A stretch of DNA of 64,000 bases from Minisyncoccota bacterium (GCA_035559235.1 DATMBM010000016.1:28431-92430); one strand, 5' to 3'. Shown: positions 5,463-62,896, numbered from the stretch's first letter. Made by a program: numbers and translations. The notes: generated by a model not told the origin, from the letters alone.

Positions 5463-5502
5463 ATGTATCACTTTCTATACCATGGTATAGAAAGTGATAC
5501 AT
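5463..5502. promoter_or_regulatory. 40-bp perfect palindrome (atgtatcactttctatacc|atggtatagaaagtgatacat) in the promoter region of the hydrolase gene; candidate operator
   Basis: Read directly: both 20-nt arms are exact reverse complements, centred on CCATGG. It sits 75 bp upstream of the hydrolase start (5388) and 30 bp downstream of the regulator stop. A 20/24-matching half-site recurs at 6124-6147, overlapping the regulator start codon. Confidence 0.55.
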
Positions 5503-5531
5503 GGGTTCACATTCCACGATTCCTATCGCTC

Positions 5532-6128
5532 TCAAATACTGAAGCGCTTGCGTAACACTCGATCGCTGCCAAGTGAGTCCGCAACAACGAGGCGCAGCTC
5601 CTCGTCAGAAAGCGAAAAAGCGTCTCGTAGCACGCCAACCTGTTCAGAACAATCGAATGGATATATCCAGACGCTTTTCTGTAACATGATCGCCCCGAGG
5701 CGTCGTATCAAACTCCTGAACGCGTTCCGTTTCGCGGTCTCGCCGGTCGGGATATCAAATAAAATAATCCGCCACTTGCCGTCCCAAACGTCAGGCCGAA
5801 CCATCGGTCGGAGAAGGATGCGCCGCGCAACCAAGCTTCGGGCACGCGCTCGTCCGTGTGACGTCATCTCGATTCGCATTCCGCGCTTTGTCGATCGTTT
5901 TTTTACATACCCTTTGCGAAGTAAATATTGGAACGACTGCTGTACCTTTCTCTTGCGATCTCGATCCTCCGCTTTGAACACGAAACCAACCCCGGCCAGT
6001 GCAATAAAAAGAGTCGGCGCAAGAGTTAAAGCAGCGGCAACGCCTCCTGCAACAAACAGTGCCTCTAGTATTCCATGTGGCGTGTCTTCAAAAAGCATCG
6101 GCTCGGGATGTTTAGTTTTTTGAACCAT
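5532..6128 (-). CDS. membrane-anchored putative transcriptional regulator: N-terminal TM helix, winged-HTH-like basic region, C-terminal Cas2-fold / PaaX-C-like domain
   Basis: TM segment GILEALFVAGGVAAALTLAPTLFIALAGVGFVF, then a basic wHTH-like stretch. The C-terminal WDGKWRIILFDIPTGETAKRNAFRSLIRRLGAIMLQKSVWIYP has the beta-alpha-beta pattern of Cas2 and the PaaX C-terminal domain. The start codon lies inside a CCATGG half-operator. Confidence 0.55.
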   Translation of the reverse strand: MVQKTKHPEPMLFEDTPHGILEALFVAGGVAAALTLAPTLFIALAGVGFVFKAEDRDRKRKVQQSFQYLLRKGYVKKRSTKRGMRIEMTSHGRARARSLVARRILLRPMVRPDVWDGKWRIILFDIPTGETAKRNAFRSLIRRLGAIMLQKSVWIYPFDCSEQVGVLRDAFSLSDEELRLVVADSLGSDRVLRKRFSI

Positions 6129-6147
6129 GGTATAGATAATAATACAT
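6124..6147. promoter_or_regulatory. half-site (accatggtatagataataatacat) matching the right arm of the 40-bp palindrome; candidate autoregulatory operator over the regulator start codon
   Basis: 20 of 24 positions match the palindrome arm accatggtatagaaagtgatacat. It overlaps the ATG of the regulator gene (6126-6128 on the minus strand). Confidence 0.4.
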
Positions 6148-16779: not shown

Positions 16780-18231
16780 CTACTCTTTTCTCGGAAACAA
16801 ATTGACCGGCTTTTTGTTGGCAAGGATCGCCTGCTTTATCGCGTTACTGGTCGCCGGGATGATCGGCTGCAAGAGCCGCGCAATGACGTAGAGGCGCGCG
16901 GTCATTGCGGCGATCATCGCCTTCCCCTTTGCGGGATCTTCTTTGACGATGGCAAACGGCTTCGTGTCGGTGAGTTCCTTGTCGAGCTCCCCGATGAGCT
17001 TCCATACATAATCACACGCCGCGTTGTAGTCGTACCGATCAAACGCGCTTGTGTACACGGCCGGAAAATCCTCTGGCACCGGCTCCGGCTTTTCTATTGG
17101 TTTCTCCAGATGTGCCTCCGCGAGCGTGAGGAGCCGTGAGGCGAGGTTGCCGAGGCCGTTGGCAAGGTCGGCATTGTAGCTTTCCTTGAATTTCGCAAGC
17201 GTAAAATCGCTGTCTTCAAACGGATGAATGTGCCGCGCGAGAAAGAGCCGCAGCGCATCGACGCCATACTCATCGACGATCGCGTACGGATCTATCACAT
17301 TGCCGAGCGATTTCGACATCTTCTTGCCGCCGGACGTGATGAAGCCGTGGATGACGATTTGACGCGTCGAGGGGAGGTCCGCCGAAATAAGCATCGCCTG
17401 CCACATGGCCGCTTGCTGGCGGACATTGTCTTTGCCGGCCATCTGCAATGCCTTTGGCGACGGAATGATGCCCCAGAACCGCTCGAACTCGGGCTCGTTT
17501 TCCGGCCAGCCGAGCGTCGAGATGTAGTTGATGAGCGCATCGAACCAGACGTACATAACCTGCGTGTCGTCGTCCGGCACGGGCACCCCCCACGGCATTT
17601 TTGATTTGAGTCTCGAAATCGAAAAATCTTCCAGCCCCTGTGCGACGAACGCCTTTATCTCATTGAAGCGGAAATCCGGCACGACAAGATCCGGCCGACG
17701 CGCATACAAATCCAAGAGTGGAATCTGGTATTTCGAGAACCGGAAGAAATAGTTCTCTTCGTTGATAAGCTCGATATCAAGCGTCGGGTGCAAGGAACAG
17801 CGTCCGTTGACGAGTTCCGAATCGGTTTTTTCCAATTCGCAGCCGACGCAGTATTTCACCTGGTAGTTTTTCTTGTAGATATCTCCCGCCGCCATGCAGC
17901 GAAGCCAAAAATATTGCGCGGCACGCTTGTGGTGCTCATCGGTCGTGCGAATGAAATGGAGGTCGGGAAACAGGTTGAGCTTCTCTTTCAGGTTGCGGAA
18001 TTTTGCGGCGTATTCGTCGACGTAGGCCTGCGGGTCTTTCTTCTCTTCCTGCGCCTTGCGGTAGATCTTGATGCCATGTTCATCGGTACCGGTATTGAAA
18101 AAAACCTCGTCGCCAAGAAGCGCGCGATAGCGCGCGATGATATCGGCCTGAACGATCTCAAGCGCGAAGCCGATGTGCGGATCGGCATTCACGTACGGGA
18201 GCGTCGTCGTTATATAAAAGGGTTTTCCCAT
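16780..18231 (-). CDS. metG: methionyl-tRNA synthetase (short form without a C-terminal tRNA-binding domain); likely start MGKPFYITTT
   Basis: HIGH-region context (YITTTLPYVNADPHIGFALE), zinc knuckle CVGCE..., KMSKS (KMSKSLGNVID). Confidence 0.93.
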   Translation of the reverse strand: MGKPFYITTTLPYVNADPHIGFALEIVQADIIARYRALLGDEVFFNTGTDEHGIKIYRKAQEEKKDPQAYVDEYAAKFRNLKEKLNLFPDLHFIRTTDEHHKRAAQYFWLRCMAAGDIYKKNYQVKYCVGCELEKTDSELVNGRCSLHPTLDIELINEENYFFRFSKYQIPLLDLYARRPDLVVPDFRFNEIKAFVAQGLEDFSISRLKSKMPWGVPVPDDDTQVMYVWFDALINYISTLGWPENEPEFERFWGIIPSPKALQMAGKDNVRQQAAMWQAMLISADLPSTRQIVIHGFITSGGKKMSKSLGNVIDPYAIVDEYGVDALRLFLARHIHPFEDSDFTLAKFKESYNADLANGLGNLASRLLTLAEAHLEKPIEKPEPVPEDFPAVYTSAFDRYDYNAACDYVWKLIGELDKELTDTKPFAIVKEDPAKGKAMIAAMTARLYVIARLLQPIIPATSNAIKQAILANKKPVNLFPRKE

Positions 18232-18250
18232 GTTGTGCACCCTATCGCCT

Positions 18251-19303
18251 TTATGCATCACTCGCAAACGTCCGTTGCTCGCTCAAATCGCGGATGAGTT
18301 CCTGCAAGGTCGCGGCGACGGGAACGGAAAGGAGGATGCCCAAGAAGCCCGCCAGCTGCGCGCCGATAATGAGCCCCAAAATGACAAGGAGCGGCGGCAC
18401 GCCGACGACCTTCGTCACGACAAGCGGATAGATGAGGTGGTTTTCAAACTGCTGCAGGATGATATAGACGCCGATGACGACAAGTCCGAGGATGAGACCC
18501 CCGTCGGCAAATGCGATGAGAACGGCGGGCACAGCCGCGAGGGTCGGGCCGAACACGGGGATCAATTCGAAAAACGCGGCAAGCACGGCGAGAAGGAGCG
18601 CGTGCTTGATGCCGAGGATCGAGAGCGCGAGATAGACGAGAATGCCGATGATGACCCCGAGAAGCACTTGCCCCTGCATCCACAGGCCGATTTTCCGCTT
18701 CGAGCGCTCCCACAAATCCAGGACGTAGGCGCGGTACCGTTGCGGCGTGACCACGCGCAGGAAATCGTCGACGCCGGTCTCAGACATCGTGAAATAGAAC
18801 GAAAGGACGAGTATGAGGATGAACGAGAAGACGCCGCCGAAGAGCGTTGCGGCCGCGCCGGCGGCGCTTCCAAACGCGCCGCTCACCCGTAAGCTGTCGC
18901 GTGCCTGCGCGATCAAATCAGCCGGAGAGATGTTCGTCGGTGACGGCAGGCCGAGAATGTCGGCGTATTCGTTGTACGCGCCGAGCCGGTTGAGGAGATC
19001 GAGGTAACTTGGAAGCGCAGAAATGAAGCCCGTGAGTTCGTTCAAGACCGACGGCACGAAGACGTAAAAGAGGCCGCCGATGGAACTGAGCACGATGACG
19101 TAGAGAAGAATAACCGCAAGGATGCGTGGCATCCGCCAGCGCATAAAGGCACGCACCGCCGGATCCATCGCGGAGGCGATTACGACCGCCGTAAGCACGA
19201 TCAACACCAAATCGCGCAGGTACCAGACGAGCCACGCGCCCGCGAGGACGACCAGAGTCTTTACGATCGTGCCCGTCGTAATGGAGAATGTCTGCTCAGG
19301 CAT
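18251..19303 (-). CDS. AI-2E family transporter (PerM/YhhT-like permease)
   Basis: 350-aa polytopic membrane protein with the typical AI-2E family topology and motifs. Confidence 0.85.
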   Translation of the reverse strand: MPEQTFSITTGTIVKTLVVLAGAWLVWYLRDLVLIVLTAVVIASAMDPAVRAFMRWRMPRILAVILLYVIVLSSIGGLFYVFVPSVLNELTGFISALPSYLDLLNRLGAYNEYADILGLPSPTNISPADLIAQARDSLRVSGAFGSAAGAAATLFGGVFSFILILVLSFYFTMSETGVDDFLRVVTPQRYRAYVLDLWERSKRKIGLWMQGQVLLGVIIGILVYLALSILGIKHALLLAVLAAFFELIPVFGPTLAAVPAVLIAFADGGLILGLVVIGVYIILQQFENHLIYPLVVTKVVGVPPLLVILGLIIGAQLAGFLGILLSVPVAATLQELIRDLSEQRTFASDA

Positions 19304-19325
19304 ACTCCTATCGTATCATGTGAGA

Positions 19326-19408
19326 CGGGGTTGGGGCCCCGTCGCAAGATCGGAGCGCGTCGGCGCGAGGCGAGGTCGCGCACATTTTCAGCAGAAAATG
19401 ATGCGTGA
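19326..19408 (+). repeat. copy A of an ~83-bp structured repeat (ggggttggggccccg...gtcgcgcacattttcagcagaaaatgatgcgtgac), intergenic between the AI-2E transporter gene and glyQS
   Basis: ~90% identical to 23064-23146 in the same orientation. Contains a 7-bp hairpin cattttc-agca-gaaaatg. In copy B the stem is catcttc/gaagatg, a compensatory pair change. Confidence 0.7.
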
Positions 19409-19411
19409 CGA

Positions 19412-20725
19412 CTAACAGATGTATGAAGCGATGTCGGCTATTGGCACGCGTTCCTGCTCGCCCGAATCACGATCGCGCACGGTGACAATGTCTTTTTTGT
19501 CGTCACCGCCTTCACCGAGCGTGTCAAAATCAATGGTGATGCAGAACGGCGTCCCGATTTCGTCTTGCCGGCGATAGCGCTTCCCGATATTGCCGTTGTC
19601 GTCCCACATGATCTGCGGGATGTCTTTCTTGAGCATCTCGTAGACCTCGCGCGCTTTCGCGACCAAGTCCGGCTTGTTCTTAAGGAGCGGAAACACGGCG
19701 GCTTTTACCGGCGCAATCTCTTTCGGGAATGCGAGGTAGGTACGCGCCTCGCCGCCCATTTCATCCTCCTTGTACGCCGAGGCGAGAACCGCGAGGATAG
19801 TACGATCGACGCCAAACGACGGTTCGATGACGTGCGGCACGTATTTCTCGCCGCTTTCTTCATCCATAATCGACAGATCGACACCGGACATCCCCGCATG
19901 CGCCGTCAGGTCGAAATCAGTGCGGTACGCGAGGCCGTACAACTCTTTAACGCCAAAGGGATAGTCGAACTCAAAATCGATCGTTCGCTTGGAATAATGT
20001 GCGCGCTCGGTATCAGGTACTTCCAGCTCCGTTACCCTTTTGCCGTCGATGCCGACGCGCTCGATCCATGCATGCATGGCGTTGCGGAATTCCTCGAATT
20101 TCGCTTCCCAATCGCGCGGGTGCACGAAGTATTCGATTTCCATCTGCTCGAATTCACGCGAGCGGAAGACGAAATCGCGCGGTGCGATCTCGTTGCGGAA
20201 GGCTTTGCCGATTTGTCCGAGCCCAAACGGCATTTTCGGGTGTAGTGAATCGACAACGTTTTTGAAATTAACGAACATTCCTCCGGCCGTCTCCGGACGC
20301 AGATACGAAATTGATGATGCGTCTTCTGTCGCGCCGATGTGCGTCTTGAACATCATATTAAATTGCCGTGCCTCGCCGAGTTTTCCGCCGCATTCGGGGC
20401 ATGTTGTTTTGTCCTCCAGGTGATCTTCGCGAAATCGTCTCTTGCACTTTGTGCATTCCACCAACGGATCGGAAAAACCGCTCACGTGGCCCGAGGCCTC
20501 CCACACCTTCGGATGCATCAGGATGGCGGCGTCCATGCCGTACATATCATCGCGCTCCTGCACGAACATTCGCCACCAGAGGTTCTTGATGTTGTTCTTC
20601 AATTCGACGCCCATCGGGCCGTAGTCCCACGTGCCGGCGAGGCCGCCGTAAATTTCCGAGCCCTGGTAGATAAAACCGCGCCGCTTGGCGAGAGAGACAA
20701 TCTTTTCCATCGTTGCCTCGGACAT
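19412..20725 (-). CDS. glyQS: glycyl-tRNA synthetase, class II alpha2 type
   Basis: MEKIVSLAKRRGFIYQGSEIYGGLAGTWDYGPMGVELKNNI... is diagnostic of dimeric GlyRS. The likely start is the internal Met at 20725. Confidence 0.92.
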   Translation of the reverse strand: MSEATMEKIVSLAKRRGFIYQGSEIYGGLAGTWDYGPMGVELKNNIKNLWWRMFVQERDDMYGMDAAILMHPKVWEASGHVSGFSDPLVECTKCKRRFREDHLEDKTTCPECGGKLGEARQFNMMFKTHIGATEDASSISYLRPETAGGMFVNFKNVVDSLHPKMPFGLGQIGKAFRNEIAPRDFVFRSREFEQMEIEYFVHPRDWEAKFEEFRNAMHAWIERVGIDGKRVTELEVPDTERAHYSKRTIDFEFDYPFGVKELYGLAYRTDFDLTAHAGMSGVDLSIMDEESGEKYVPHVIEPSFGVDRTILAVLASAYKEDEMGGEARTYLAFPKEIAPVKAAVFPLLKNKPDLVAKAREVYEMLKKDIPQIMWDDNGNIGKRYRRQDEIGTPFCITIDFDTLGEGGDDKKDIVTVRDRDSGEQERVPIADIASYIC

Positions 20726-20791
20726 TCCGTGAGTGTACCTCAAAAGCGAAAATGACAAAATGTCCTTGTATTTCCAATCGTAAGAGCGAGC

Positions 20792-20883
20792 GCAGGTGTT
20801 TTTCAGGGTCTTCGCAGCGCCGACGGGCGCGAGACCGAGCGCTGGCGCAGCAGCGCCAGATGGCGACCCTGAAAAACACCTGC
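20792..20883. mobile_element. 92-bp MITE-like element: 19-bp perfect terminal inverted repeats (gcaggtgtttttcagggtc / gaccctgaaaaacacctgc) flanked by a 5-bp direct repeat CGAGC
   Basis: Read directly: TIRs at 20792-20810 and 20865-20883 are exact reverse complements. CGAGC sits at 20787-20791 and 20884-20888. Internal nested hairpins (gcgcc-gacg-ggcgc; ctggcgc-agca-gcgccag). It lies 7 bp after the stop of the upstream gene, in the glyQS leader. Confidence 0.5.
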
Positions 20884-20890
20884 CGAGCGA

Positions 20891-22924
20891 CTATTTCACA
20901 ACTGTCGCGTTTGCGGGCGTGAATCCTGGATCGGTGTTGATGTTCGTCGTGACGTCGGTGGCGCTGCGCGAGACCGTCTCCCCCGTCGCTTCGTCGATGC
21001 CGGTAAGCTGAATTGCGCGAATGAGGACCGGCTGCTGGCCAATTTGCGATGTGGAGGGCGTGATCGCGATATTGATGCCGAGCTGGCGCACCTGTATGCC
21101 CTCGGTCCCGGTGCCCGGCTCAATCGTCCCCAACCGCCACGTGAATGTGCCGTCGTTTTGGTTGAACGAGATGTCCGCGCTTGCGGGCGCAAAGATACCG
21201 GTCCAACGCACGTACGGCGGCAAAGCCGCCTTCACGACGGCATTCGTGATGCGGTTCGTGGTGTTGGTGACGCTCAGAACGATGCCGTAGGTCGTTTCTT
21301 CGCCGGCTTTCGGAGGGATAGGGCCGCTTGAGGAGAGTGGGTTCGAATAGTAGAGGCCCTGCGCAATGAGCTGCAGGTCGCTTGCGACACGGATCGTCTG
21401 CGAAGCGGTGGACTGCAGGGTCTCGGGCACATCGCGCTCCGCGATGCGCCGCCCGGCCGCCTGGACGCTTATCGTGACTTTCGGATCGCGCAGGCCGCGC
21501 AGTTCGTCGTTTGACGGCACTGAGAATGAAAAACTGACGGTCCCGCGCGCGCCCGGTGCGAGCGATGCGAGGGAACCATTCGTCGTCGACTTGTCCCACA
21601 AGACGACACGGTCGCTCGAGCGATAGAAGCCGTCGTTCGTGCGCACCGTCGTGCCGTCGATTTCAATGCCGCTCAACTGCGCAACGATGACCGCGTCGAT
21701 AATCGGCGTCGAGAGGTTGTTCTGCCACTGCACTGCGACGTTCACCGTCTCTCCCGGACCTGCAATCGCGCCGCTCGCCCCCTGGTCCTTGTTCACGTCG
21801 ATGGTGAGGCCGAGGAATGGATTCGAGACGGTGACGTGATGCGCGTAATCGGCAAGAACGGCATCAATTGCCGTTTTTTCCTCCGAGGTGCGCGTGCCGG
21901 CCGTAAAGCGAATGACGCGCTCATCTCCGCTTTCGCCCAGGACGCTGCCGCGCACCAAGACGCTCTTCTGCTGCCCCGGCGCAAGGTCGCCGAGCGCCCA
22001 CAAGTTCCGCGATCCCGCAACGGGCTGCGGGTCGGCGTGTGAAAGCGTAAAGCCGAACGGGAAATTGATATTGAGGAGCACATCCTTTACCGGCGCCTCC
22101 GCATTCGACGCGACAGTCGCCGTAAATTCAACCGGCTGCCCTGAAATTGTTTCGCTATTGCCTTCAATGGAGAGCGAGATCGGTGACGAGGAGAACATGA
22201 TCTGGTAGTCGGTCGAGGAGACGAAAATGGCGCTCGAGCCCGCAAGGCGATATTCGAGTTCAACCTTGACGGTCGCGCGCTCGCCTTCCTGCCCGGCAAA
22301 AACCGCCGAAATCGTGCCGCGCCGCTGTCCACCCGGCTCAATCGTGCCGAGCGATTCGCGCAAGTCGGGCAAGCTCGTCGTAAGATCATTGACCGAACGC
22401 GTACCCTTCGGAAATGTGACGACCAGGTCGGCAAGTTCAAGCGGCACGCGGTTGCGGTTTACGATTGCGATCTGCAATTTCGTGGGCGTGCCGCTTTGCA
22501 CCTGCAGCGGCCCTGAGACGACGATGTCGATATTGCCGGGAGAGGCGGGAACGCTCCCGCCGCCGAGAAAAAAGTAATACGCCAGAAAACCTCCCGCCCC
22601 CACTCCGAAGGCAACCCCGGCATAGATGAGCCACTGCACGAGCACGCGCATCACGTGCAACTTCTTTGGTGCGGCAATCGTGCCGGTAAACGGGCTGTCG
22701 TCGGGGTGCTGCCAGTCCTCGCCGATTGGCGGCGTCCCAGCCTCAAGTTCATGGCGCGGCTTCTCCTTGATGTTCGGTTCCAGCGCGCGGCTGTACATCG
22801 CGCGCCGCAGACGTTCTATCTTTTCCTTCTCATGGTCGCTCTCCACCTGCCCGTCTCGACTCGCGTCACGTGATGCGGGCGGCTCGACGCCCTCAAAAGG
22901 AACATGAGGTTTTTCCTCAGGCAT
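20891..22924 (-). CDS. large membrane-anchored surface protein with repeated Ig-like / DUF11-type beta domains (677 aa)
   Basis: Charged cytoplasmic N-terminus, one TM helix (VLVQWLIYAGVAFGVGAGGFLAYYFFL), then ~550 aa of beta-rich repeats. Confidence 0.65.
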   Translation of the reverse strand: MPEEKPHVPFEGVEPPASRDASRDGQVESDHEKEKIERLRRAMYSRALEPNIKEKPRHELEAGTPPIGEDWQHPDDSPFTGTIAAPKKLHVMRVLVQWLIYAGVAFGVGAGGFLAYYFFLGGGSVPASPGNIDIVVSGPLQVQSGTPTKLQIAIVNRNRVPLELADLVVTFPKGTRSVNDLTTSLPDLRESLGTIEPGGQRRGTISAVFAGQEGERATVKVELEYRLAGSSAIFVSSTDYQIMFSSSPISLSIEGNSETISGQPVEFTATVASNAEAPVKDVLLNINFPFGFTLSHADPQPVAGSRNLWALGDLAPGQQKSVLVRGSVLGESGDERVIRFTAGTRTSEEKTAIDAVLADYAHHVTVSNPFLGLTIDVNKDQGASGAIAGPGETVNVAVQWQNNLSTPIIDAVIVAQLSGIEIDGTTVRTNDGFYRSSDRVVLWDKSTTNGSLASLAPGARGTVSFSFSVPSNDELRGLRDPKVTISVQAAGRRIAERDVPETLQSTASQTIRVASDLQLIAQGLYYSNPLSSSGPIPPKAGEETTYGIVLSVTNTTNRITNAVVKAALPPYVRWTGIFAPASADISFNQNDGTFTWRLGTIEPGTGTEGIQVRQLGINIAITPSTSQIGQQPVLIRAIQLTGIDEATGETVSRSATDVTTNINTDPGFTPANATVVK

Positions 22925-22949: not shown

Positions 22950-23609
22950 CTAGAGATGCGTCTCTGAAATGGCCTTATTCACCGATGAAAGCAATTTTTG
23001 TCGGCCCGCCTCGACTTCTGAGAGTTCCGGCAGCCCGTATGCCGCGTGCGTGAAGAGTGAGGTGGGGTTGGGTCCCCGACGCAAGGCCGGAGCGCGACGG
23101 TGCGAGGCGGGGTCGCGCACATCTTCAGCAGAAGATGATGCGTGACCGTTGCCGAGCGCGTCTGCCGAAAGATAACCCAGCGCGTAAAGGATGCGCGCGA
23201 CGCAAAGCAGTTCGATCGTCGCCTGCGTCTCGCGCGGCGCTTCGAGAAGCGTGCGCCGTGCCTCAACAAGCGCCCGATATAGATATTCGTTTTTCTCCTC
23301 GCCCGCGATCAGGCGGTCCGCCAAATTCGCAATGCGCGCGAACACGGCCGCTGCCGCTTCCGGCATACTTGTTTCCGAAAGCGCCATCGCACCGACGACG
23401 CGCCAGCCGCTCACCCCGCGCACCAGCGCGACATTTGCTTGCGCGTAATTCTGGAGGGCATAGCGCATGCGTGACGATTCACGCCGCACCGCAGAGGCAC
23501 GCGCCCACACCAAGCCGAACGCTTCCGTGTAGAGCGCGAAAACGCGGTCGGCCTCTCCCCGCTCGTAACTGCGCAAGACAAGGGCTTCTGTTTGGTATTT
23601 CTGGTACAT
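22950..23609 (-). CDS. recO: DNA repair protein RecO (219 aa), carrying an in-frame copy of the ~83-bp repeat in its C-terminal region
   Basis: N-terminus MYQKYQTEALVLRSYERGEADRVFALYTEAFGLVWARASAVRR matches the RecO OB-fold domain. Repeat copy B (23064-23146) lies inside the ORF and is translated as ...GNGHASSSAEDVRDPASHRRAPALRRGPNPTS.... Confidence 0.8.
   Translation of the reverse strand: MYQKYQTEALVLRSYERGEADRVFALYTEAFGLVWARASAVRRESSRMRYALQNYAQANVALVRGVSGWRVVGAMALSETSMPEAAAAVFARIANLADRLIAGEEKNEYLYRALVEARRTLLEAPRETQATIELLCVARILYALGYLSADALGNGHASSSAEDVRDPASHRRAPALRRGPNPTSLFTHAAYGLPELSEVEAGRQKLLSSVNKAISETHL
23064..23146 (+). repeat. copy B of the ~83-bp structured repeat, embedded in-frame in recO
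   Basis: Aligned by eye to 19326-19408: ~74/83 identical. Hairpin preserved by compensatory T>C / A>G changes. Confidence 0.7.
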
Positions 23610-23611: not shown

Positions 23612-26600
23612 TTATTCGCGCGCGAGCTTCAATGCGACGTCGTAGTCGCCGATTTTCTGGCGCGTACCATGCACTGTACCAAAACCGATGGTCGCATGCG
23701 TCGTCTCGGCGATCGTGGTCTTGTTCCGCTCGATCAGTTCTTGTCCCTTCGGCGCATCAATCGTGAGCGTTACCGTATCGCGCGGATCGAGCCCCGCGTC
23801 CTTGCGAGCGCCCTGTATCGCGCGGATCAGCTCGCGTACGAAACCCTCTTCTTTCAGCTCTGCGGTGATTTCAGTATCCAATTGAATGTCTTCTGCGATA
23901 TCAGCCTGCTCGACTCCTTTTACATTCACCTCATCGCGAATGACTTCAAGCAGTTCGTCGGAGAGCCCCGCATGCTTGATGACGAGTTTTTTGAGCGGTT
24001 GGCGCACTTTGATGCCCGCCTTGTCGCGCGCCTCGAGCGCTTTTGAGACGATCGCGCGGACTTTCGCCATGTCCTCGAGGATTAGGTCTTGCTTGTGACC
24101 GCCAAAAAGTCTCGAGAAAAAACCAGTGCTGTGCGGCTCCGGCCACGACTCAAGGTGCACGCTTCCACCGCCTTCAATGCCGCGGTAGATGGAATCTGCG
24201 AGAAAAGGAGCAATCGGCGCCATAAGCTTCGCGAGCGTAAGCAGGACTTCCCGCTGCGTCGCAAGTGAATGGTGCTTGTCGTGCCATTCTCCCTTGACGC
24301 GCTCGCGCGAGCGACGCACGTACCACGTCGAATAATCGTCAACAAATTCACGGAGCGCGCGGCACGCACGCGGCGTGTCGTAGGCGTCCATCGCCTCGGT
24401 CACGTCCGCCGTCACTTCGTCGAGCCGCGCGAAGATCCACCGGTCAAGGACATGTTCGCTCGCGCGCGGCTTTGTGATGCCATCGTACTCCCGCTGGTAC
24501 AAATCAAAGAATTTGAACGTATTCCACAAAATGCCGATCACGCGATTGTGCGCGTCGCGCACGTCCTCGTCGCGGAACCGCAAATCTTCCGCCTGCATCA
24601 CTGGAGACGACATCAGATACAGGCGCAGTGCGTCGGAGCCGTAGCGGTCGACCAATTCCAAAGGGTCGGTGTAATTGCGCTTGGATTTCGAGATCTTCTC
24701 GCCATCCGCCGCAAGAATGGTGCCGGTTGAGACGACGGTGTGGAATGCAAGACGGTTGAACAGCAGGACTCCCATCGCGTGCATGTAGTAAAACCACGTG
24801 CGAGTCTGCGCAATGTATTCAGCAATGAAATCCCCGGGCGCGCGCTTTTCGAATTCGTCTTGGTTTTCAAACGGATAGTGGTATTCCGCGAAGGGCATCG
24901 AGCCGCTCTCCACCCAGCAGTCGACGACTTCCGGAATGCGGCGATATTCCTCACCGTCATCGCCAATAAGGACTAAATCGTCAATGTACGGCCGGTGCAG
25001 GTCGAGTTCGAATTCGGCATTCCACGGCATCGGGGCGAAATCGAATGCTTCCACCTTCCCCTTCTCCGGATACTCTGCGCTTCTCCGCATAACAGTTTCC
25101 TCCTTTGATAGGCCGCGCGCAGCTGATTTCAAAAGCCACAATGGCGTTCCGTGCGAGACGATCAAGATGTGTTCACCGTGGTGCGTTGCTTCCAGCTCAT
25201 GCATGAAGGCCATCATCCGCTTCTTGATGTCGGTGTAGGTTTCTCCGCCTTTTGGCGCTTTCGTAAAGCGATCCATCTTGTCCGGAAACGCCGCATGATA
25301 CTCCTCGAGTGTTTTGCCGCTGTATTCGCCGAACTGCGACTCGCCGATTCTCCCATCGACGACGACGCGGTCGTGCGGAATGCCGAGCGCTTCGGCAATG
25401 ATCTGAGCCGTCTCGCGCGTCCGCTTGAACGGTGACGCATATACGTATCCGATGTTCTTCTCGCGCAACTTTTCAGCCGCTTCGCGCACCTCTGCCTTGC
25501 CTTCTTCGGTAAGATGGATGTCCGCATCGACATCAGACGACACGATATCTTGCACATTGTTGTCGGCGCGTCCGTGGCGCATCACGAAATAGGTATTGCC
25601 GCTCTTTTTGACGCGCTGCCGTATCTCCTCAACCGATCCCACCACCATCACCTTTCCCTCTTTCGATTTCCAGATTGGCAAAGGCGAGGCCCAGAACCGA
25701 TTGCGCGAAATCGTCCAGTCCGGCGCATTCTCGACGATGTTGTAGAAACGGCCGTGCTTCAGATGGTCTGGCACCCAATTCACCTTCTCATTTTCGGAGA
25801 GCATCTTCGCTTTCACCTTCTGGATATTGATGAACCACGACGAGACGGCGTTGTAGATAAGGGGTGTGCCGCAGCGGTAGCAGTGCGGGTAGGAGTGCGT
25901 GTGATTTTCTCGTTTAAACAGGAGGCCGCGCTCCTGCAAATCGCGCTTGATGTCTTTCTCAGCGTCTTTTATGTATTTTCCGCGGATAAATTCCGGTACC
26001 TGATCGTTGTACGTGCCGTTCGGGTTCAGGAGCTGCACCATCGGAAGCCCTTCTTTTTGTCCGAGCACAAAGTCATCCTCGCCATACATCACCGCCGTGT
26101 GCACAATGCCGGTTCCCTCGTCGGTCGAGACGAATTCGGCCGCGTACACTTTGTATGACTTTTCTAATTTCAGCGCTGGCACCTCAAAGAGTGGCTCGTA
26201 TTCAAGACCAATCAGATTTTTGCCCGAAAATTCGTATCCTGAATTAGGATCACTGAGACCGAGCGCTGGCATCCGCTCTTTTGCGACCAAATAATATCTT
26301 CCCGGTTCGTATTGAACAGCACGATAACTTATGTCTGCACCCACAGCTAATGCCACGTTTCCAGGCAAGGTCCACGGAGTTGTTGTCCACGCGAGGAGAT
26401 GTACGTCCTGCCCAATACCGAGTTCAAATAATTTTGGAGTGGGTCTGACCTTGAACTTCACCGTCACCGCTTCCTCGGTGATATCTTCGTATGTATTGTC
26501 CTGAGCGATTTCCGCTTTCGCAAGCGGCGTCTCGCAATGCGGGCAATACATGAGGACTTTGCGCCCCTCGTAGAGCAAATCTTTCTCCCACAATTGCTTG

Positions 26601-27085
26601 AGTGCCCACCAGACAGACTCGATGTACGTGTTGTCCATCGTCTTGTACGAGTTGTCATAATCAACCCAGCGACCGATCCGATCGATATACTTTTTCCATT
26701 CGTCCACGTATTTCAAGACCATCGACCGCGCCTTCTCGTTGAAAGTCGCGATGCCGATGTCGAGGATATCTTTTTTTGTCTTAAGTCCTAGTTCTTTCTC
26801 GACGAGCGATTCGATCGGGAGTCCGTGCGTGTCCCATCCCCAACGACGTCGGACACGATAGCCGCGCATGGTCTTGTAGCGCGGAATGACGTCCTTAATT
26901 ATCGAAGATAATAAGGAGCCATGGTGAGGAAGCCCTGTCGCAAACGGCGGACCATCGTAAAAAACGAACTCTCCCTTTGGTGACTTCTTTTCTAGACTCC
27001 GTTCGAATGTCTTGTTTTCCCGCCAAAAAGCGAGTATGTCCTCCTCGCGCTTCGCCGTTTCGCTTTTGCCGCCCTGTTCAGCCAT
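23612..27085 (-). CDS. ileS: isoleucyl-tRNA synthetase (type 2-like) carrying a ~200-aa histidine-phosphatase (PGAM-like) domain inserted in the catalytic core
   Basis: HIGH region PPFATGLPHHG; WTISRNRFWASPLPIW; CWVESGSMPF; KMSKS-equivalent KISKSKRN; C-terminal anticodon-binding region. Between ...IWKSKEGKVMVVGSVEEIRQRV and ...EEYRRIPEVVDCWVESG lies VMRHGRADNN...SPFKRTRETA...ILIVSHGTPLW, the RHG...R...H...SHG histidine-phosphatase signature. The likely start is MAEQGG at 27085; the ORF extends to 27217. Confidence 0.93.
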   Translation of the reverse strand: MAEQGGKSETAKREEDILAFWRENKTFERSLEKKSPKGEFVFYDGPPFATGLPHHGSLLSSIIKDVIPRYKTMRGYRVRRRWGWDTHGLPIESLVEKELGLKTKKDILDIGIATFNEKARSMVLKYVDEWKKYIDRIGRWVDYDNSYKTMDNTYIESVWWALKQLWEKDLLYEGRKVLMYCPHCETPLAKAEIAQDNTYEDITEEAVTVKFKVRPTPKLFELGIGQDVHLLAWTTTPWTLPGNVALAVGADISYRAVQYEPGRYYLVAKERMPALGLSDPNSGYEFSGKNLIGLEYEPLFEVPALKLEKSYKVYAAEFVSTDEGTGIVHTAVMYGEDDFVLGQKEGLPMVQLLNPNGTYNDQVPEFIRGKYIKDAEKDIKRDLQERGLLFKRENHTHSYPHCYRCGTPLIYNAVSSWFINIQKVKAKMLSENEKVNWVPDHLKHGRFYNIVENAPDWTISRNRFWASPLPIWKSKEGKVMVVGSVEEIRQRVKKSGNTYFVMRHGRADNNVQDIVSSDVDADIHLTEEGKAEVREAAEKLREKNIGYVYASPFKRTRETAQIIAEALGIPHDRVVVDGRIGESQFGEYSGKTLEEYHAAFPDKMDRFTKAPKGGETYTDIKKRMMAFMHELEATHHGEHILIVSHGTPLWLLKSAARGLSKEETVMRRSAEYPEKGKVEAFDFAPMPWNAEFELDLHRPYIDDLVLIGDDGEEYRRIPEVVDCWVESGSMPFAEYHYPFENQDEFEKRAPGDFIAEYIAQTRTWFYYMHAMGVLLFNRLAFHTVVSTGTILAADGEKISKSKRNYTDPLELVDRYGSDALRLYLMSSPVMQAEDLRFRDEDVRDAHNRVIGILWNTFKFFDLYQREYDGITKPRASEHVLDRWIFARLDEVTADVTEAMDAYDTPRACRALREFVDDYSTWYVRRSRERVKGEWHDKHHSLATQREVLLTLAKLMAPIAPFLADSIYRGIEGGGSVHLESWPEPHSTGFFSRLFGGHKQDLILEDMAKVRAIVSKALEARDKAGIKVRQPLKKLVIKHAGLSDELLEVIRDEVNVKGVEQADIAEDIQLDTEITAELKEEGFVRELIRAIQGARKDAGLDPRDTVTLTIDAPKGQELIERNKTTIAETTHATIGFGTVHGTRQKIGDYDVALKLARE

Positions 27086-27108
27086 GTCGCGTATCGTAGC
27101 AAAGGGCG

Positions 27109-28128
27109 TCACTCTGCGCGAGACGTCTTCAGCCGTTTCTCCTTTTCGTGCCGCTCGATGGCGAGCCGGATGAGTGTGTCGATGAGTTTTGGGTAGGGCA
27201 TCCCCCACTCCTCCCACATCTTCGGATACATACTAATCGAGGTGAAGCCGGGGATGGTGTTGATTTCATTGACGAGCACTTTACCGAGCTTGGTGACGAA
27301 GAAATCAACTCGAGCCATCCCCTCGCAGCAGAGCGTCTTAAACACGAGCACGGCCATCCTTTGAATTTCCTTTACCCTTTTCTTCGGCAAATGTGCCGGA
27401 ATTTGAGGGATCATCGCCTCCGGGTCGAGGTATTTTGCCTCGTACGAATAAAACTCGCTGTTGAGTACCAATTCCCCCGGCACCGACGCAACCGGCCTCT
27501 CATTGCCAAGAACCGAACATTCGATCTCGCGGCCGTCGACAAACTCCTCGACGAGGATTTTCGTATCGTATTCGAATGCATGCCTCAGCGCCGCATTAAA
27601 TTCTTTTTCATTCCGTACTTTCGAGACACCGACCGACGAGCCGAGATTCGCAGGTTTTACGAACATCGGCAATCCTAATTTCTTCTTCGCGTCGGCAAAA
27701 CGAATCTTTTCGTGCGAATGAACAACGGCAAATCTCGCAATCGGAATTCCCGCATCGCGCAGAAGCCGCTTCATTACATCCTTGTCCATCCCGACTGCAG
27801 AACCAAGAACCCCTGCGCCTACAAACGGTACGTCCGCCAATTTCAAAAGCCCCTGCACCGTGCCGTCTTCGCCAAATGGTCCATGCAAGACTGGGAAGAC
27901 CACATCGAAGGTGTGCAAAAATCCAAAAATATCTTCGACACGCCTACCTGTTTCCAATAGTGATTCTTTCGCATACTTCCACACGCCCTTTGTATCAATG
28001 CACACCGTTCCAATGTCGTATTTCCTCCGATCGAGCGCCCTCACGACATTCCGTGCAGAAAGAATCGAAACTTCGTGCTCCGCCGACTTTCCGCCAAACA
28101 GTACCGCAATCCGTAGTTTCCGCTTCAT
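27109..28128 (-). CDS. ddl: D-alanine--D-alanine ligase
   Basis: MKRKLRIAVLFGGKSAEHEVSILSA... with an ATP-grasp fold; typical Ddl length of 339 aa. Confidence 0.92.
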   Translation of the reverse strand: MKRKLRIAVLFGGKSAEHEVSILSARNVVRALDRRKYDIGTVCIDTKGVWKYAKESLLETGRRVEDIFGFLHTFDVVFPVLHGPFGEDGTVQGLLKLADVPFVGAGVLGSAVGMDKDVMKRLLRDAGIPIARFAVVHSHEKIRFADAKKKLGLPMFVKPANLGSSVGVSKVRNEKEFNAALRHAFEYDTKILVEEFVDGREIECSVLGNERPVASVPGELVLNSEFYSYEAKYLDPEAMIPQIPAHLPKKRVKEIQRMAVLVFKTLCCEGMARVDFFVTKLGKVLVNEINTIPGFTSISMYPKMWEEWGMPYPKLIDTLIRLAIERHEKEKRLKTSRAE

Positions 28129-28153: not shown

Positions 28154-28765
28154 TTACACCAAACGCTCACCAAGCCGGTCAAGCGGTTCATGGAAATCCT
28201 TGATAACCTTCCCATTTCGGACAACGCTCCAGTCGCCAAAATTGTTACGCTTCAAGCGACTGTACACATCCTGTTCTCCCTGCAGCTCCGCAATGTACAT
28301 GTTCATCGTATATCCGTGACCGACAAACAAAATCTTCCTATTGTGATTTTCGGCATCGACAATCCCCACCTTTGTGGTGAACCGCTCTCGAGCGCTGGCC
28401 GCTGATTCCCACTTTCCGTCGTTGGCCTTAACCTCAGGATGCGTCAAGGCTTCTTTCGCAGTCGCTTCGTAAGTGTCGTGATCCATGAAATCGCCTTTGT
28501 CCCTATCCATTTCCGCGATTTCGCTGGAATACATGACTTCGAATTTTCTATTGGCTTCGCGCAATGTATCCAAAAGCGGCGCAATCGTTTGTTGCGCCTT
28601 CTTCTCAGTTGAAATGATGAAGATATCAACGTCGTGGAAAAATGTATTCTGCGCTATATCCTGCGCCTGCCGTGCGCCTTCCGTAGTCAAATCCCATTCG
28701 CTGATCGGCGTATCTTTATCAACTTTTGTTTCCCCATGCCGCAGGAAAATCAATGTGTTGTTCAT
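28154..28765 (-). CDS. histidine phosphatase family protein (phosphoglycerate-mutase-like), stand-alone
   Basis: LIFLRHGETKVD... (RHG catalytic motif) and ...ILFVGHGYTMNMY (second His). The start at MNNTLIFL overlaps the argS stop by 4 bp. Confidence 0.78.
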   Translation of the reverse strand: MNNTLIFLRHGETKVDKDTPISEWDLTTEGARQAQDIAQNTFFHDVDIFIISTEKKAQQTIAPLLDTLREANRKFEVMYSSEIAEMDRDKGDFMDHDTYEATAKEALTHPEVKANDGKWESAASARERFTTKVGIVDAENHNRKILFVGHGYTMNMYIAELQGEQDVYSRLKRNNFGDWSVVRNGKVIKDFHEPLDRLGERLV

Positions 28766-30441
28766 ACTTTCTCCGGCGCGGGAATGCCAAGGAGCCACAA
28801 GCCATTCTTGAGCGTGAGGCGCGTGATGTCAGCCACCGCGACTTTGTGCGCAGCCGCCGGAGTACCATCGAGGATCTGTTCTTTCGCGTACCAGCTGTTG
28901 AATGCGGACGCTATCATGATCAGATAATTAGCAACAATATGCGGCTCGAGCTGTTCCTGCGCCCGCACGACGGTCTCATAGAATCGGTAGACAAGGCGTG
29001 TTAGATCACTCGGCGGAGCGCCCGCGTCGAATTTCCCCTTCACTTTCGCCTCCTTCGCCTTTTCCATGATCGCGTGACAGCGTGCGTGCGTGTACTGGAG
29101 ATACGGCCCGGAGTCACCTTCGATCGAGAGCGCCTGCTCGCGGTTAAACACAATATCTTTTCCCATCGCGCCTTTCAGGATTTGGAATTTAATCGCCGCG
29201 ACGGCGATGTCTTGTGCGAGCTTTTCCTTATCTCGCGCGCGGCTCTCCGCCGCGCGCGCCTTTGCCACGTCGGCCAAATCCTCAATCAACGATTCTCCGG
29301 TGACGACATTGCCCGTGCGCGAGGACATCTTTCCTTCCTGTAGGCGCATCATCCCGTGCGAGACATGTCTCGTTTTTGCGGCGAGCTCCGGAAAGACTTC
29401 GCTCATCGCCGCAAGGAGCACCTTGAAATACTCGTTAATCTCATTGCCGGTGACGATCACCGACGTGTCGTACTTGAATGTGTCATACTTCATCTTCGAG
29501 AGCCCCAATTCTTTCGCCTCATACGTCGGCAGGCCTTCTGAATTCAGGAAGACGCGGGTGTGCAACCCTTTCTTTTCGCCGTCGTAGACGATGGCACCTT
29601 CGCTTTCCTTGAAAACGCCGTCTGCGACGTGTTTCTCAACCACCTGTTTGCCAAACGGCCCGGTCTCACTCTCGAAAAAATAGTAATCAAATTTCGTGCC
29701 GAGAATGTCGTACAGCTCCTCGAAATGCGCAAGTGACGTCTTTCGCCCTTCGTCGTACAGCTTGGTGATCGCCTTGTCGGAACGCTCGTACACCTTTTTG
29801 TTGATCGCGGTAATTTCTTCTTTTACCGGCGAACCATCGACATCCGCGGCCGCGCCTGCTGCATACGCGCGTCCCAACGCTTTCACATCCTTCGCACTTT
29901 CTCCGCTCTGCAGCAGCCCCCAAATTGCGCGCGCAACATGACGGCCAACATCGCCCTGGTAATTAGCGCGCTTCACGGTGGCGCCGGAAAACGCGAACAG
30001 GCGCGAAATGCTCTCGCCAATCGCGTTCGTTACGAGGTGGCCGATGTGGAATTCCTTAAATGGATTCGGGTCGGTGTATTCCACGATCACTTTCTTTCCC
30101 TTTAGACCGACGCCGCTGCCCCATTTCTCGCCATGCTTCCGTCCGATTTCCAGCATCTCATACAGATATTCCGGTGAGAGCGTGAAATTGATGAATCCTG
30201 GACCGGCGACTTCGACGCTCGCAACACCTTCGGCGTCGCGAACGGCCGCAGCGAGCTGTTCCGCAAGCTCGCGCGGGTTTTTCCCGAGCTGTTTTGCGTA
30301 AACGAGTGCGACATTTGAAGCGTAATCGCCGTGAGAAAGGTCGGCCGTATGTTCGAGCACAATGTCTTCGGGGACGACGGAACTACCCGCCCCGGCGAGT
30401 GCCTGTGCGAGTCGTTCACGAATTGAGGAAACGGGGTCCAT
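28762..30441 (-). CDS. argS: arginyl-tRNA synthetase
   Basis: N-terminal Arg_tRNA_synt_N-like domain, HIGH-equivalent region (PNPFKEFHIGHL), C-terminal DALR anticodon-binding domain. Confidence 0.93.
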   Translation of the reverse strand: MDPVSSIRERLAQALAGAGSSVVPEDIVLEHTADLSHGDYASNVALVYAKQLGKNPRELAEQLAAAVRDAEGVASVEVAGPGFINFTLSPEYLYEMLEIGRKHGEKWGSGVGLKGKKVIVEYTDPNPFKEFHIGHLVTNAIGESISRLFAFSGATVKRANYQGDVGRHVARAIWGLLQSGESAKDVKALGRAYAAGAAADVDGSPVKEEITAINKKVYERSDKAITKLYDEGRKTSLAHFEELYDILGTKFDYYFFESETGPFGKQVVEKHVADGVFKESEGAIVYDGEKKGLHTRVFLNSEGLPTYEAKELGLSKMKYDTFKYDTSVIVTGNEINEYFKVLLAAMSEVFPELAAKTRHVSHGMMRLQEGKMSSRTGNVVTGESLIEDLADVAKARAAESRARDKEKLAQDIAVAAIKFQILKGAMGKDIVFNREQALSIEGDSGPYLQYTHARCHAIMEKAKEAKVKGKFDAGAPPSDLTRLVYRFYETVVRAQEQLEPHIVANYLIMIASAFNSWYAKEQILDGTPAAAHKVAVADITRLTLKNGLWLLGIPAPEKV

Positions 30442-61597: not shown

Positions 61598-62695
61598 CTA
61601 CCGATTGAGCGGCATCACGAGATAGGTGAAGGACGCGTCGCTAACGCCCCGGATGACGAGCGGGCGGCCGGCACCGCTGAAGCTGAGGGTGAGAGAATCG
61701 GCAAGTACCGACTGCAGGCAGTCGGCGACGTAGCCGATGTGGAAATTCACATCAATGTCCTCGCCGGAGAGCGCTGCATCCAACGAATCGGACATTTCTC
61801 CGATCGCGGCGCTTTGCGCCGTTACATCAAACACTTTCTTTTTCGGGTACACGTGGAAGCCGACGTGTTGGTCGGCGCCGGCAAACACCCGCGCCTTGCG
61901 CAAAGCTTCCGCAAAATCGCTTTTCAAAAGGGTCACTTCGGTGGTAAATGATTTGGGAATAATCTCTTTGTAATTGGGGAACGTCCCGTCAACGATGCGC
62001 GAGGTGAACACGAGCCCGTCCCCGCGGAGTGTGAGCTGGGATTCGTCAATGAAGAGTTCGACAGTGTCTGCGGCGATTTTTTCGAGGATGTGCATGAGTT
62101 CCTGCGCGTGCTTCAAGGGAAGGAGGACGTCGCCCGAGCCGTCCCCTGAAGCGTCCGAGACCGTTTTTTCCGCAAGCCGGAACGAATCGGTAGCAACCGC
62201 AACCAATTTCGAGTCTTCCACGTTCAGATACACACTTCCCAACTCCGGACGGATCATCGAGGTCGACGCGGCGTATGACACCGATTGCAGCGCTTGGAGA
62301 AGTAGTTCGCGGGAGATTTTGAGCGCCTTGCCGCCGGCTTGCGACGACAGTGCTGGAAATTCATCGTGCGGCACCGCCTTAATCAACGTCTTCGAACCGC
62401 GTGCCTCGATGAGGAGGTTCGGCCCGTCCGTAGAAAACATCACCTTGTCCCCCGATACGGCGCGCAATGTTTGGGAGAGAATCGATGCCGGGACCGCCAC
62501 TACTCCCTTCTCACCCATTTCTCCAACCACAGTGATTTCAACACCAGCCTCAAGATTCGTTGAGCGGATCGTCATATCTTTCGACACATCGAGAAGGACA
62601 CATGAAAGTACTGGGAGTGATTCCTTCTTACCCACAATACGTTCCGCAATCAGGATCGCATTGAGAATTTTTTCCTTTGGTGTCGTGAATTGCAT
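61598..62695 (-). CDS. dnaN: DNA polymerase III beta sliding clamp
   Basis: MQFTTPKEKILNAILIAERIVGKKESLPVLSCVLLDV…: three-domain beta clamp, 365 aa, immediately downstream of dnaA. Confidence 0.95.
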   Translation of the reverse strand: MQFTTPKEKILNAILIAERIVGKKESLPVLSCVLLDVSKDMTIRSTNLEAGVEITVVGEMGEKGVVAVPASILSQTLRAVSGDKVMFSTDGPNLLIEARGSKTLIKAVPHDEFPALSSQAGGKALKISRELLLQALQSVSYAASTSMIRPELGSVYLNVEDSKLVAVATDSFRLAEKTVSDASGDGSGDVLLPLKHAQELMHILEKIAADTVELFIDESQLTLRGDGLVFTSRIVDGTFPNYKEIIPKSFTTEVTLLKSDFAEALRKARVFAGADQHVGFHVYPKKKVFDVTAQSAAIGEMSDSLDAALSGEDIDVNFHIGYVADCLQSVLADSLTLSFSGAGRPLVIRGVSDASFTYLVMPLNR

Positions 62696-62896
62696 GCGTG
62701 TATTGTTTTTTACTTTTAATAAAGCTTATTATTACTATTAGTGGTGTGGATGTGGGGATATGTGTGTTTTATTAAGGGTTTGAGCGCTGGTTTTTGGTGA
62801 TGGAGTTGTGGAATAGGTGGGGACATAGGAGATTGTGTAATGTGGATTGTTGAAATTTTTTTCCGGATGTTGTTATACACAACAATGTTCACAGTG
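62696..62896. promoter_or_regulatory. dnaA-dnaN intergenic region with an AT-rich stretch and multiple DnaA-box-like 9-mers; candidate oriC / DnaA-regulated region
   Basis: AT-rich run tttttacttttaataaagcttattattactatta (62706-62740). DnaA-box-like TGTGGATGT (62745-53), TGTGGAATA (62807-15), TGTGGATTG (62841-49), TTATACACA (62873-81). Consensus TTATCCACA / TGTGGATAA. Confidence 0.5.

Follow-up and report, generated by a model that had tools for sequence, protein, structure and literature searches.

A 64,000-nt stretch of a Minisyncoccota bacterium genome (GCA_035559235.1, DATMBM010000016.1:28431-92430), referred to here as the window, carries two copies of a 90-nt repeat with a three-hairpin fold that has been kept by compensatory changes among related copies from other genomes. 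The repeat appears to be a previously undescribed structured element, a member of none of the families tested, that works like small hairpin repeats already known. Our preferred explanation, to which we assign a probability of about 50%, is that it is a low-copy, non-autonomous mobile element recognized through its fold and resident in Kaiserbacteria- or Paceibacteria-like members of the candidate phyla radiation (CPR). This reading is built on the discrete boundaries of the element, the occurrence of filled and empty sites, the polyphyly of the alleles that carry it, a conservation decoupled from that of the host, and a preference for certain targets. CPR bacteria have tiny genomes with few recognized mobile elements and few known non-coding RNAs, and a full-text literature search found no such element for Kaiserbacteria, Parcubacteria, or CPR.

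A repeat search of the window returned one family of two copies, A and B (Table 1), both on the + strand and 3,737 nt apart, which align without gaps and are identical at 79 of 90 positions (88%). The initial annotation had described two copies of ~83 bp at ~90% identity, in the same orientation and 3.7 kb apart; the number, orientation, and spacing hold, whereas the length and the identity required revision. The edges of the copies are sharp (GTGAG...GCGTGAC), with identity collapsing right outside of them, and the flanks of A and B are unrelated. A profile of both copies recovers them with E values of 1.7e-28 and 9.6e-28 (nhmmer), and neither nhmmer nor an unfiltered covariance model yielded a third strong copy in the window. 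With Rfam 15 run over the whole window at gathering scores, neither copy was matched; at E <= 10 over positions 19200-19520, the sole match was isrK, with 12.8 bits against a cutoff of 50. ARAGORN found no tRNA or tmRNA at either copy. Copy A is intergenic, as previously described, and lies in the spacer between the genes for GlyRS and an AI-2E family transporter, antisense to both, and all of the genes neighboring the two copies are on the - strand. The proximity of the copies and their common orientation could be put down to chance, or to this genome having recently undergone a local duplication or gene conversion, but this is scarcely credible given an E value of ~1e-28, the unrelated flanks, and the occurrence of copies in many genomes. 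Copy A differs from copy B at 11 positions, from a recO-resident copy in another genome (L014; L numbers denote related loci) at only 6, and from the copy at L002 at 7. Unrelated flanks and the closer similarity of copy A to foreign copies exclude a segmental duplication, which the initial annotation had also disfavored; the case that it had reserved, in which only these two copies exist, does not hold, as copies are present in many other genomes.

From 5' to 3', the element consists of a variable hairpin (HP1), a second hairpin (P2), a GGG(G) linker, and a third hairpin (P3). In RNAfold, the + strand of each copy folds into three hairpins, and its z score relative to shuffled sequence is -5.0 for A and -3.3 for B. 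The common form of the 61-nt core is GCC-GGA-(P2 stem with a GNNG-type loop)-GA-GGC-GGG(G)-GUCGCGCACAUUUUC-AGCA-GAAAAUG-A-UGCGUGAC, in which pair 4 of P3 is a G.U and an A bulges out 8 nt from the 3' end. The initial annotation had identified a 7-bp stem in which a T>C change on one arm is matched by an A>G change on the other, and took this as a sign of selection on secondary structure rather than drift. The stem is present, albeit only as the upper part of a longer hairpin of 15 bp that has a single bulged A, and the two changes are indeed paired in this hairpin (T19386 and A19397 in A, C23123 and G23134 in B). This is the one strict compensatory pair among the 11 differences between the copies, and several of the others weaken HP1 in copy B (G.A and U.U) or the P2a helix of P2 in copy A (A.C and U.G); selection could therefore not be demonstrated from A and B alone, and it is the family alignment that makes the case. 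The core alignment contains 18 copies, 17 of them distinct in sequence. Standard pairs occupy 96.8% of its pair cells, both sides have changed in 12 of the 22 core pairs (8 of the 15 in P3), and none of 500 shuffles reached the observed core values on any measure, while controls with slid partners paired at only 24-51%. For 11 full-length copies, RNAalifold recovers 30 pairs, 10 with compensatory changes. These values indicate that the fold is under selection, in agreement with the initial proposal.

The helices vary among loci. L016 has CAUCCGC/GCGGAUG along with an A-U to G-C change lower in P3, L006a has AACUUUUC/GAAAAGU, L022 has CACG.../...CGAUG, and L072 has GUCGAAAG/CUUUUGAC at the base of P3; L007/L011 carry C-G in place of G-C at two pairs, and P2a of L010 is GGC/GCC in place of GCC/GGC. 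The P2 stem is swapped wholesale among loci (CGCG/CGCG, CCUG/GAGG-type, UCUGC/GCAGA, CAGC/GCUG, and GGCC/GGCC), with the P2b helix changed completely in L003, L004, L010, L012, and L013. In two variants (L002 962-1046 and L006 4715-4799), the P3 tip is longer, but P2, the linker, the U:A tract, the bulged A, and the base of P3 with its G.U are all retained. The pairs of HP1 covary as well (CG, UG, UA; GC/CG), and unrelated hairpins replace it at other loci, with the region 5' of the core taking one of three forms: a GUGAGA-HP1-UCGCAAG module, as in the 90-nt form, an unrelated local hairpin, or a closing stem built out of a T-arm. Good folding is likewise found for the reverse complement (z -5.1 and -4.0), but in the + orientation G.U cells exceed A.C cells by 19 to 4 and 23 to 3, and this excess indicates that + is the folding strand.

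Copies that share this one fold come from ~17 other metagenomic loci, and their hosts are Kaiserbacteria/Paceibacteria-like CPR bacteria wherever the source names an organism. Further loci came from a metagenome scan (six real), RecO-based look-ups (seven), and open reading frames (ORFs) covering the element (three). The RecO of the window is itself identical to a protein from a "Candidatus Paceibacterota" metagenome-assembled genome (MAG), and its homologs are Kaiserbacteria proteins. The exact P3 pattern occurs in 4 of 185,579 representative genomes (one per species) with one or two copies each, in a scan that would miss diverged copies; one of the four matching MAGs is labeled Kaiserbacteria, one Minisyncoccia, and two are unclassified ("bacterium"). 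The exact P3 pattern had no matches among viral contigs, and a phage origin was rejected: 49 viral-contig matches to the motif CCGGAG..GAGGCGGGGTCG all failed the covariance model, the best of them, a pre-selected sequence, scoring 27.6 bits. Among the related loci, Rfam matched only tRNAs and rRNAs.

The same 90-nt boundaries recur at unrelated sites, namely copy A, the PBP-greA spacer (L002), a position upstream of a likely rpmG (L33) gene that was read by eye (L072), the pth-dprA spacer (L007/L011), and recO, and no closing helix between the flanks was found for this 90-nt type. The gene order IleRS-RecO-DUF11-GlyRS-AI-2E-MetRS is conserved across related loci, and the orthologous GlyRS-AI-2E spacer in L019 is 24 nt long and lacks the element; filled and empty orthologous sites exist. 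As a separate observation on this spacer, in L017 (14298-16836 and 19561-19923) it holds an RVT_1 reverse transcriptase gene and an uncharacterized 224-aa ORF, with a 23S_rRNA_IVP (Avd-like) gene nearby, and this locus may be a diversity-generating retroelement.

The initial annotation overlooked both the behavior of the repeat as an apparent mobile insertion and the position of copy B, which lies inside recO, antisense and in frame. The frame is open, with no stop, the - strand reading ...LGNG-HASSSAEDVRDPASHRRAPALRRGPNPTS-LFTH..., and in alignments with 17 and 110 homologs, recO codons 155-185 are derived from the element, for a net gain of 29 codons relative to relatives without it; most Kaiserbacteria RecO proteins have 187-191 aa. 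The element is present in 8 of 120 RecO homologs (P0001, which is the window protein, and P0002, P0003, P0004, P0005, P0007, P0012, and P0051), in every case after the same codon, antisense, and in frame. The larger net gains of P0002 (+33 codons) and P0003 (+40 codons) are due to extra, diverged copies of the target (LGTA; SAEALGTA), and the duplicated target at the recO junctions amounts to 0, ~10, and ~20+ nt for net gains of +29, +33, and +40 codons. In every case, the proteins most similar to an inserted RecO (up to 82% identity) have no insert, and empty recO sites are found in L019, L020, and L021. That the closest relatives are free of the insert implies either repeated gain at one recO site or many precise losses, and the inserted recO alleles are polyphyletic.

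Within seven recO copies, the element retains 88% nucleotide identity, versus 60% for recO and 37% for third codon positions, and the distance between elements does not correlate with that between hosts (rho 0.19, p 0.40). The encoded peptide shifts where the stem covaries (SFSAENV to SSAAADA in L016), and AlphaFold predicts residues ~154-182 of the window RecO to be an unstructured loop, with a predicted local distance difference test score (pLDDT) below 50-62, versus >90 in the helices on both sides. The freely changing peptide and the predicted disorder point to constraint on the nucleic acid and not on the protein, and a RecO with a 29-residue disordered loop presumably still works.

Could these observations be accounted for by vertical descent from one ancient insertion in recO and a second one in the spacer, followed by precise loss from most lineages? 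The element would then have a cis role in the aminoacyl-tRNA synthetase operon, for example, as an antisense RNA or an mRNA hairpin for stability or coupling. The identical codon, orientation, and frame in all eight RecO proteins would fit, as would the compensatory evolution within recO-resident copies such as L016 and the conserved synteny of the operon. We nevertheless consider this quite unlikely, as each inserted RecO has closer insert-free relatives and many independent precise losses would be needed, element distance does not track host distance, near-identical cores are found in contexts as unrelated as tRNA remnants and an rRNA spacer, and the orthologous operon of L019 works without the element.

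Several of the other copies are found within remnants of tRNA genes. In two organisms (L010 and L022), a long hairpin comes after an intact tRNA-Tyr and is itself followed by a split T-arm copy with the core inside, in the order T-stem 5' half plus TT, core, and CGAATCC plus T-stem 3' half and acceptor 3' strand. The T-stem forms a closing helix, with flank pairing z scores of -5.5 and -4.0, and the partial 3'-end copy matches the neighboring tRNA-Tyr over ~19 nt, which implies that it arose in place. In L001, the element lies between GGGGTT and CGATTCCC within a decayed copy of tRNA-Glu whose intact counterpart lies downstream, and in L073, the T-loop of a partial tRNA-Pro copy holds it in the opposite orientation. 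In L006, one element (L006b) interrupts a partial tRNA-Leu copy at position 26, past the D arm and ahead of the anticodon stem (^CGGTTCA), and another (L006a) is 3' of tRNA-Ile, with a variant element in tandem. The element of L003 is in the 23S-5S spacer, between CTGGTGGTT and CGAATCCCAG, and that of L004 follows rplL, the last codons and stop of which (GGKVTLK*) are present three times with synonymous differences (4170-4400). Collectively, these contexts, with T-arm-like flanks at L001b, L003, L010/L022, and L073, indicate an association of the element with tRNA T-arms. The recO site, read on the element strand, is ^CGTTGCC or ^CGGTTTC, with ...GCGC^CGTTCCC in the empty allele of L021; it resembles the 3' half of a T-loop, and this resemblance may explain the repeated hits at that codon.

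Several of these loci also have features of their own. In addition to the element in its T-loop, the decayed tRNA-Glu of L001 (2490-2620, - strand) has several short insertions of GC-rich hairpins, located in the D and anticodon loops and past the D arm. The 23S rRNA match in L003 (1908-5376) spans 3,469 nt versus 2,925 nt for the model, so this 23S gene carries large insertions, which are known for CPR rRNAs. In L006 (4700-4860), each tandem unit ends in GTGACCACAAA, a third, orphan copy of this end comes next, and CACAAA doubles as the 5' strand of the first hairpin of the next unit; growth of the array by tandem duplication would fit. In L004, two of the rplL-end copies form a hairpin over the stop codon, with a compensated pair (GTTAC/GTAAC versus GTCAC/GTGAC).

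On the mobile-element reading, the repeat has entered unrelated sites as a discrete unit, here the GlyRS-AI-2E spacer and recO, and favors a T-arm-like target, between the TT and the CGAATCC of tRNA-derived T-loops. Its fold would be kept because a trans-acting enzyme recognizes the folded single strand, as DNA or RNA, in order to copy or move the element, by analogy with hairpin-recognizing recombinases and transposases. The partial target duplicates beside many copies would be the remnants of duplications that rescued an essential gene; we infer that insertion into an essential single-copy gene would be survivable where the target is duplicated, leaving a remnant beside an intact gene.

A number of observations weigh against this reading. 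None of the 46 window ORFs scanned with Pfam encodes a transposase, integrase, or reverse transcriptase. Terminal inverted repeats of the kind found in classical miniature inverted-repeat transposable elements (MITEs) are absent, the 3' end in reverse complement (GTCACGC) agreeing with the 5' end at only 4 of 7 positions, and there is no consistent or fixed-length target-site duplication at the recO junctions or at copy A, where comparison with the empty site of L019 reveals no visible duplication. One or two copies in each of four genomes is unlike a typical MITE or repetitive extragenic palindromic (REP) sequence. The target motif was noticed after the fact and from few independent sites, and the site shared by all of the recO copies could also reflect one ancient insertion and many precise losses. 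No variation is seen among distant hosts in the GGA/GA internal loop of P2, which may be a motif of the tandem G.A type, in the linker Gs, or in the bulged A, and these conserved unpaired nucleotides, which point to a specific partner, fit a functional RNA equally well. Finally, the element is in the sense orientation at or near a tRNA or rRNA operon, or after rplL, at six independent loci: upstream of tRNA-Glu (L001), between 23S and 5S (L003), after tRNA-Ile (L006a), before tRNA-Leu (L006b), after tRNA-Tyr (L010 and L022), and after rplL (L004). This, too, is what would be expected of a functional RNA.

The strongest alternative, which we regard as possible, is accordingly a family of small non-coding RNA genes of ~60-90 nt, processed from tRNA and rRNA operon transcripts and acting via the GGA/GA loop, the linker, and the bulged-A hairpin, for instance by binding a protein or through catalysis. 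Dispersed 90-nt copies such as those of recO and the spacers would then be secondary, possibly arising via an RNA intermediate. Besides the sense orientation at the six loci, the presence of one or two copies per genome, the invariance of the unpaired nucleotides, the retention of P2, the P3 base, and the bulged A in variants that change the P3 tip, and the excess of G.U on the strand transcribed in tRNA and rRNA operons are all consistent with such a role. There is also a precedent in the Escherichia coli rtT RNA, which derives from tyrT repeats that end in 19 nt of the tRNA-Tyr 3' end. However, local transcription runs antisense to the folding strand in the window, in recO (eight lineages), and in L002, L072, and L073, no promoter-like site lies beside copy A, and no Rfam family matches. 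Moreover, an RNA gene within a coding sequence that is gained or lost repeatedly at one codon would need mobility anyway.

The mobile-element and small-RNA readings are not mutually exclusive, and the element might represent a new class, a small structured RNA that is also mobile, either as a bacterial retroposon similar to a short interspersed nuclear element (SINE) or through a catalytic or ligation step of its own. Under this scenario, which seems rather unlikely to us, a stable RNA from tRNA or rRNA operon transcripts would occasionally be copied back into DNA and home to T-loop-like sequence, with the site at recO codon 155 serving as a molecular mimic and the GGA/GA loop, the G.U pair, and the bulged A as a recognition or priming site. 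Reverse transcriptases do occur in related genomes, for example, the RVT_1 gene in L017.

It is highly unlikely that the element instead acts through its - strand, within the mRNA of the host operon, as a terminator, attenuator, or stabilizer between genes. Three spacer copies do begin 2-8 nt past a TAG stop and upstream of the next gene (for copy A and L002, both flanking genes are identified, while the L072 genes were read by eye), and the reverse complement folds well, as noted above. Yet the wobble pairs favor the other strand, one copy is inside a coding sequence, the copies in tRNA and rRNA operons are oppositely oriented relative to transcription, and a U-tract terminator is lacking. 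An intrinsic terminator was rejected, as no hairpin followed by a U run, and no other terminator-like site, is present on either strand between 19100 and 19600. An alternative terminator, in which GCGCGA pairs with UCGCGC ahead of AUUUU, forms in the canonical sequence and was dropped because P2b differs in L003 and L012 and no pairing is possible there.

The closest mechanistic analogies for a mobile element of this kind would be with insertion sequences of the IS200/IS605 type, REP sequences and their associated tyrosine transposases (RAYTs), integron attC sites, and elements that exploit Xer recombinases, and T-loop-directed integrases would be comparable. Like REPs, the bacterial interspersed mosaic elements (BIMEs) built from them, and the IS200/IS605-derived palindrome-associated transposable elements (PATEs), the element is non-autonomous and has neither terminal inverted repeats nor a target duplication; those systems likewise have hairpins near both ends, are recognized as a folded single strand, and are often found just past stop codons. 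A distance of 4 nt separates the start of HP1 from the 5' end, and the 3' end of the element is also that of P3. In contrast to a single REP palindrome, there are three hairpins with a conserved internal loop, and two strong copies in 64 kb fall short of the tens to hundreds per genome of classical MITEs and REPs. No constant 4-5 nt motif flanks the copies, with TCAT, AAGA, GGGG, CCGA, and TTTT on the left and GACT, CGTT, GCGC, and TTTC on the right, and neither a Y1 (HUH) transposase nor a RAYT was detected among the scanned window ORFs. As in integron attC sites and other folded single-stranded DNA sites, such as attP of the CTX phage, structure is conserved more than sequence, and one strand would be active. 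P3 further resembles attC in having two helical boxes, an extrahelical base between them, and a terminal part of variable length. An actual attC site was rejected: the RYYYAAC/GTTRRRY core sites are absent, the P3 base being GUCGCGCA/UGCGUGAC with no GTT/AAC triplets at its ends, and the window has no integron integrase or cassette array.

Rickettsia palindromic elements (RPEs) offer another comparison, as these ~100-nt hairpin repeats occur both in spacers and in frame within genes, where they are tolerated as surface loops. Unlike RPEs, which have entered many different proteins and RNA genes, this element occurs in one to three copies per genome, has CPR hosts, and conserves its fold but not its peptide. 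A peptide search with its four open frames matched only RecO and three short ORFs, and a general, RPE-like in-frame inserter was rejected on this basis. In L010 and L022, the element resembles the E. coli tyrT repeats and rtT RNA as an RNA-like unit past tRNA-Tyr with the last ~19 nt copied, and a 3' end that copies that of the adjacent tRNA is also seen, inverted, in L073 (tRNA-Pro); it has no sequence similarity to, or Rfam match with, rtT, and neither window copy has a tRNA-derived flank. The element shares with integrases directed to the T-loop or anticodon loop of tRNA genes its insertion points in T-loops and at an anticodon stem and the partial tRNA copy beside an intact gene, but here the insert is only 60-90 nt and has no integrase gene. 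Some features recall domain VI of group II introns and the group III introns of Euglena, including a 5' GUGAG near GUGYG, a length of ~90-100 nt, and a terminal hairpin with a bulged A 8 nt from a 3' end finishing in AC. A group II or III intron was rejected, given the lack of domain V, of other catalytic domains, and of an Rfam intron match; in addition, the antisense orientation makes splicing from recO mRNA impossible, and the differing upstream flanks follow no exon-binding logic. Likenesses to the signal recognition particle RNA, C/D-box RNAs, and k-turns were set aside.

What stands out about this compact element is the combination of unusually clean covariation, low copy number, the lack of an Rfam counterpart, and far better conservation than that of the surrounding essential genes. 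Equally distinctive are the recurrence of the element at a single recO codon in separate lineages, where it is translated as a predicted disordered loop, and its residence in what remains of the T-arms of various tRNAs, usually with an intact gene copy alongside. As mobile DNA, the element would reveal an insertion system, not described before, that recognizes hairpins and prefers tRNA T-loops; as an RNA, it would represent a new class of conserved RNA from a major uncultured lineage. In both cases, the covariance model provides a direct handle for surveys of CPR genomes and metatranscriptomes.

Table 1. Coordinates in the window of the two copies, their hairpins, the neighboring genes, and a possible further member of the family
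Feature	Position	Strand	Remarks
Copy A, full element (GTGAGAC...GCGTGAC)	19320-19409	+	covariance model 84.2 bits
HP1 of copy A	19324-19343	+	GACGGGG/CCCCGUC, UUGG-like loop; outer U-A and G-C pairs extend to 19321-19346
P2 of copy A	19349-19371	+	3-bp P2a, invariant internal loop GGA/GA, P2b with GNNG-type loop
P3 of copy A	19375-19409	+	15-bp hairpin, GUCGCGCACAUUUUC-AGCA-GAAAAUG-A-UGCGUGAC
Copy B, full element	23057-23146	+	covariance model 90.9 bits
P2 of copy B	23086-23108	+	P2a intact, GCC/GGC
P3 of copy B	23112-23146	+	CAUCUUC/GAAGAUG, the compensated pair
MetRS	16780-18267	-	
AI-2E family transporter	18251-19303	-	ATG 16 nt from copy A
GlyRS	19412-20758	-	TAG stop 2 nt from copy A
Structured ~100-nt insertion, DUF11-GlyRS spacer	20788-20890	+	covariance model 19 bits, E 0.012
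DUF11 protein	20891-22924	-	
recO, host gene of copy B	22950-23609	-	219 aa; Pfam RecO_N
IleRS	23612-27217	-	

The structured insertion between the DUF11 and GlyRS genes is possibly related to the element family. The weak covariance model match, obtained with filters off, covers 20811-20868, and the fold of the insertion has a z score of -6.3. A perfect 19-bp inverted repeat (20792-20810/20865-20883) encloses two hairpins with the loops GACG and AGCA, which are those of the element, while the ends are 5' TTCGCAG and 3' GATGGCGAC, and the CCGGAG/GAGGCGGGG motifs are absent. The spacer that holds it is 132 nt long here, versus 39-40 nt in L012 and L019.

Other features of the window are recorded here as separate observations. 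A perfect 40-nt palindrome, ATGTATCACTTTCTATACCATGGTATAGAAAGTGATACAT, and a second copy with 75% similarity (5463-5502 and 6108-6147) flank a 209-aa ORF (5494-6123) that has no Pfam match; a small cassette or, alternatively, paired operator sites could account for this arrangement. The IleRS, at 1,201 aa, contains a His_Phos_1 domain at residues 544-707, inside the synthetase core, and a separate His_Phos_1 gene is present at 28154-28798. At the right end of the window are dnaN and dnaA (61598-63937, - strand), and the cumulative GC skew drops across the window; the replication origin is probably just past the right edge, which would place the two copies ~41-45 kb from it.

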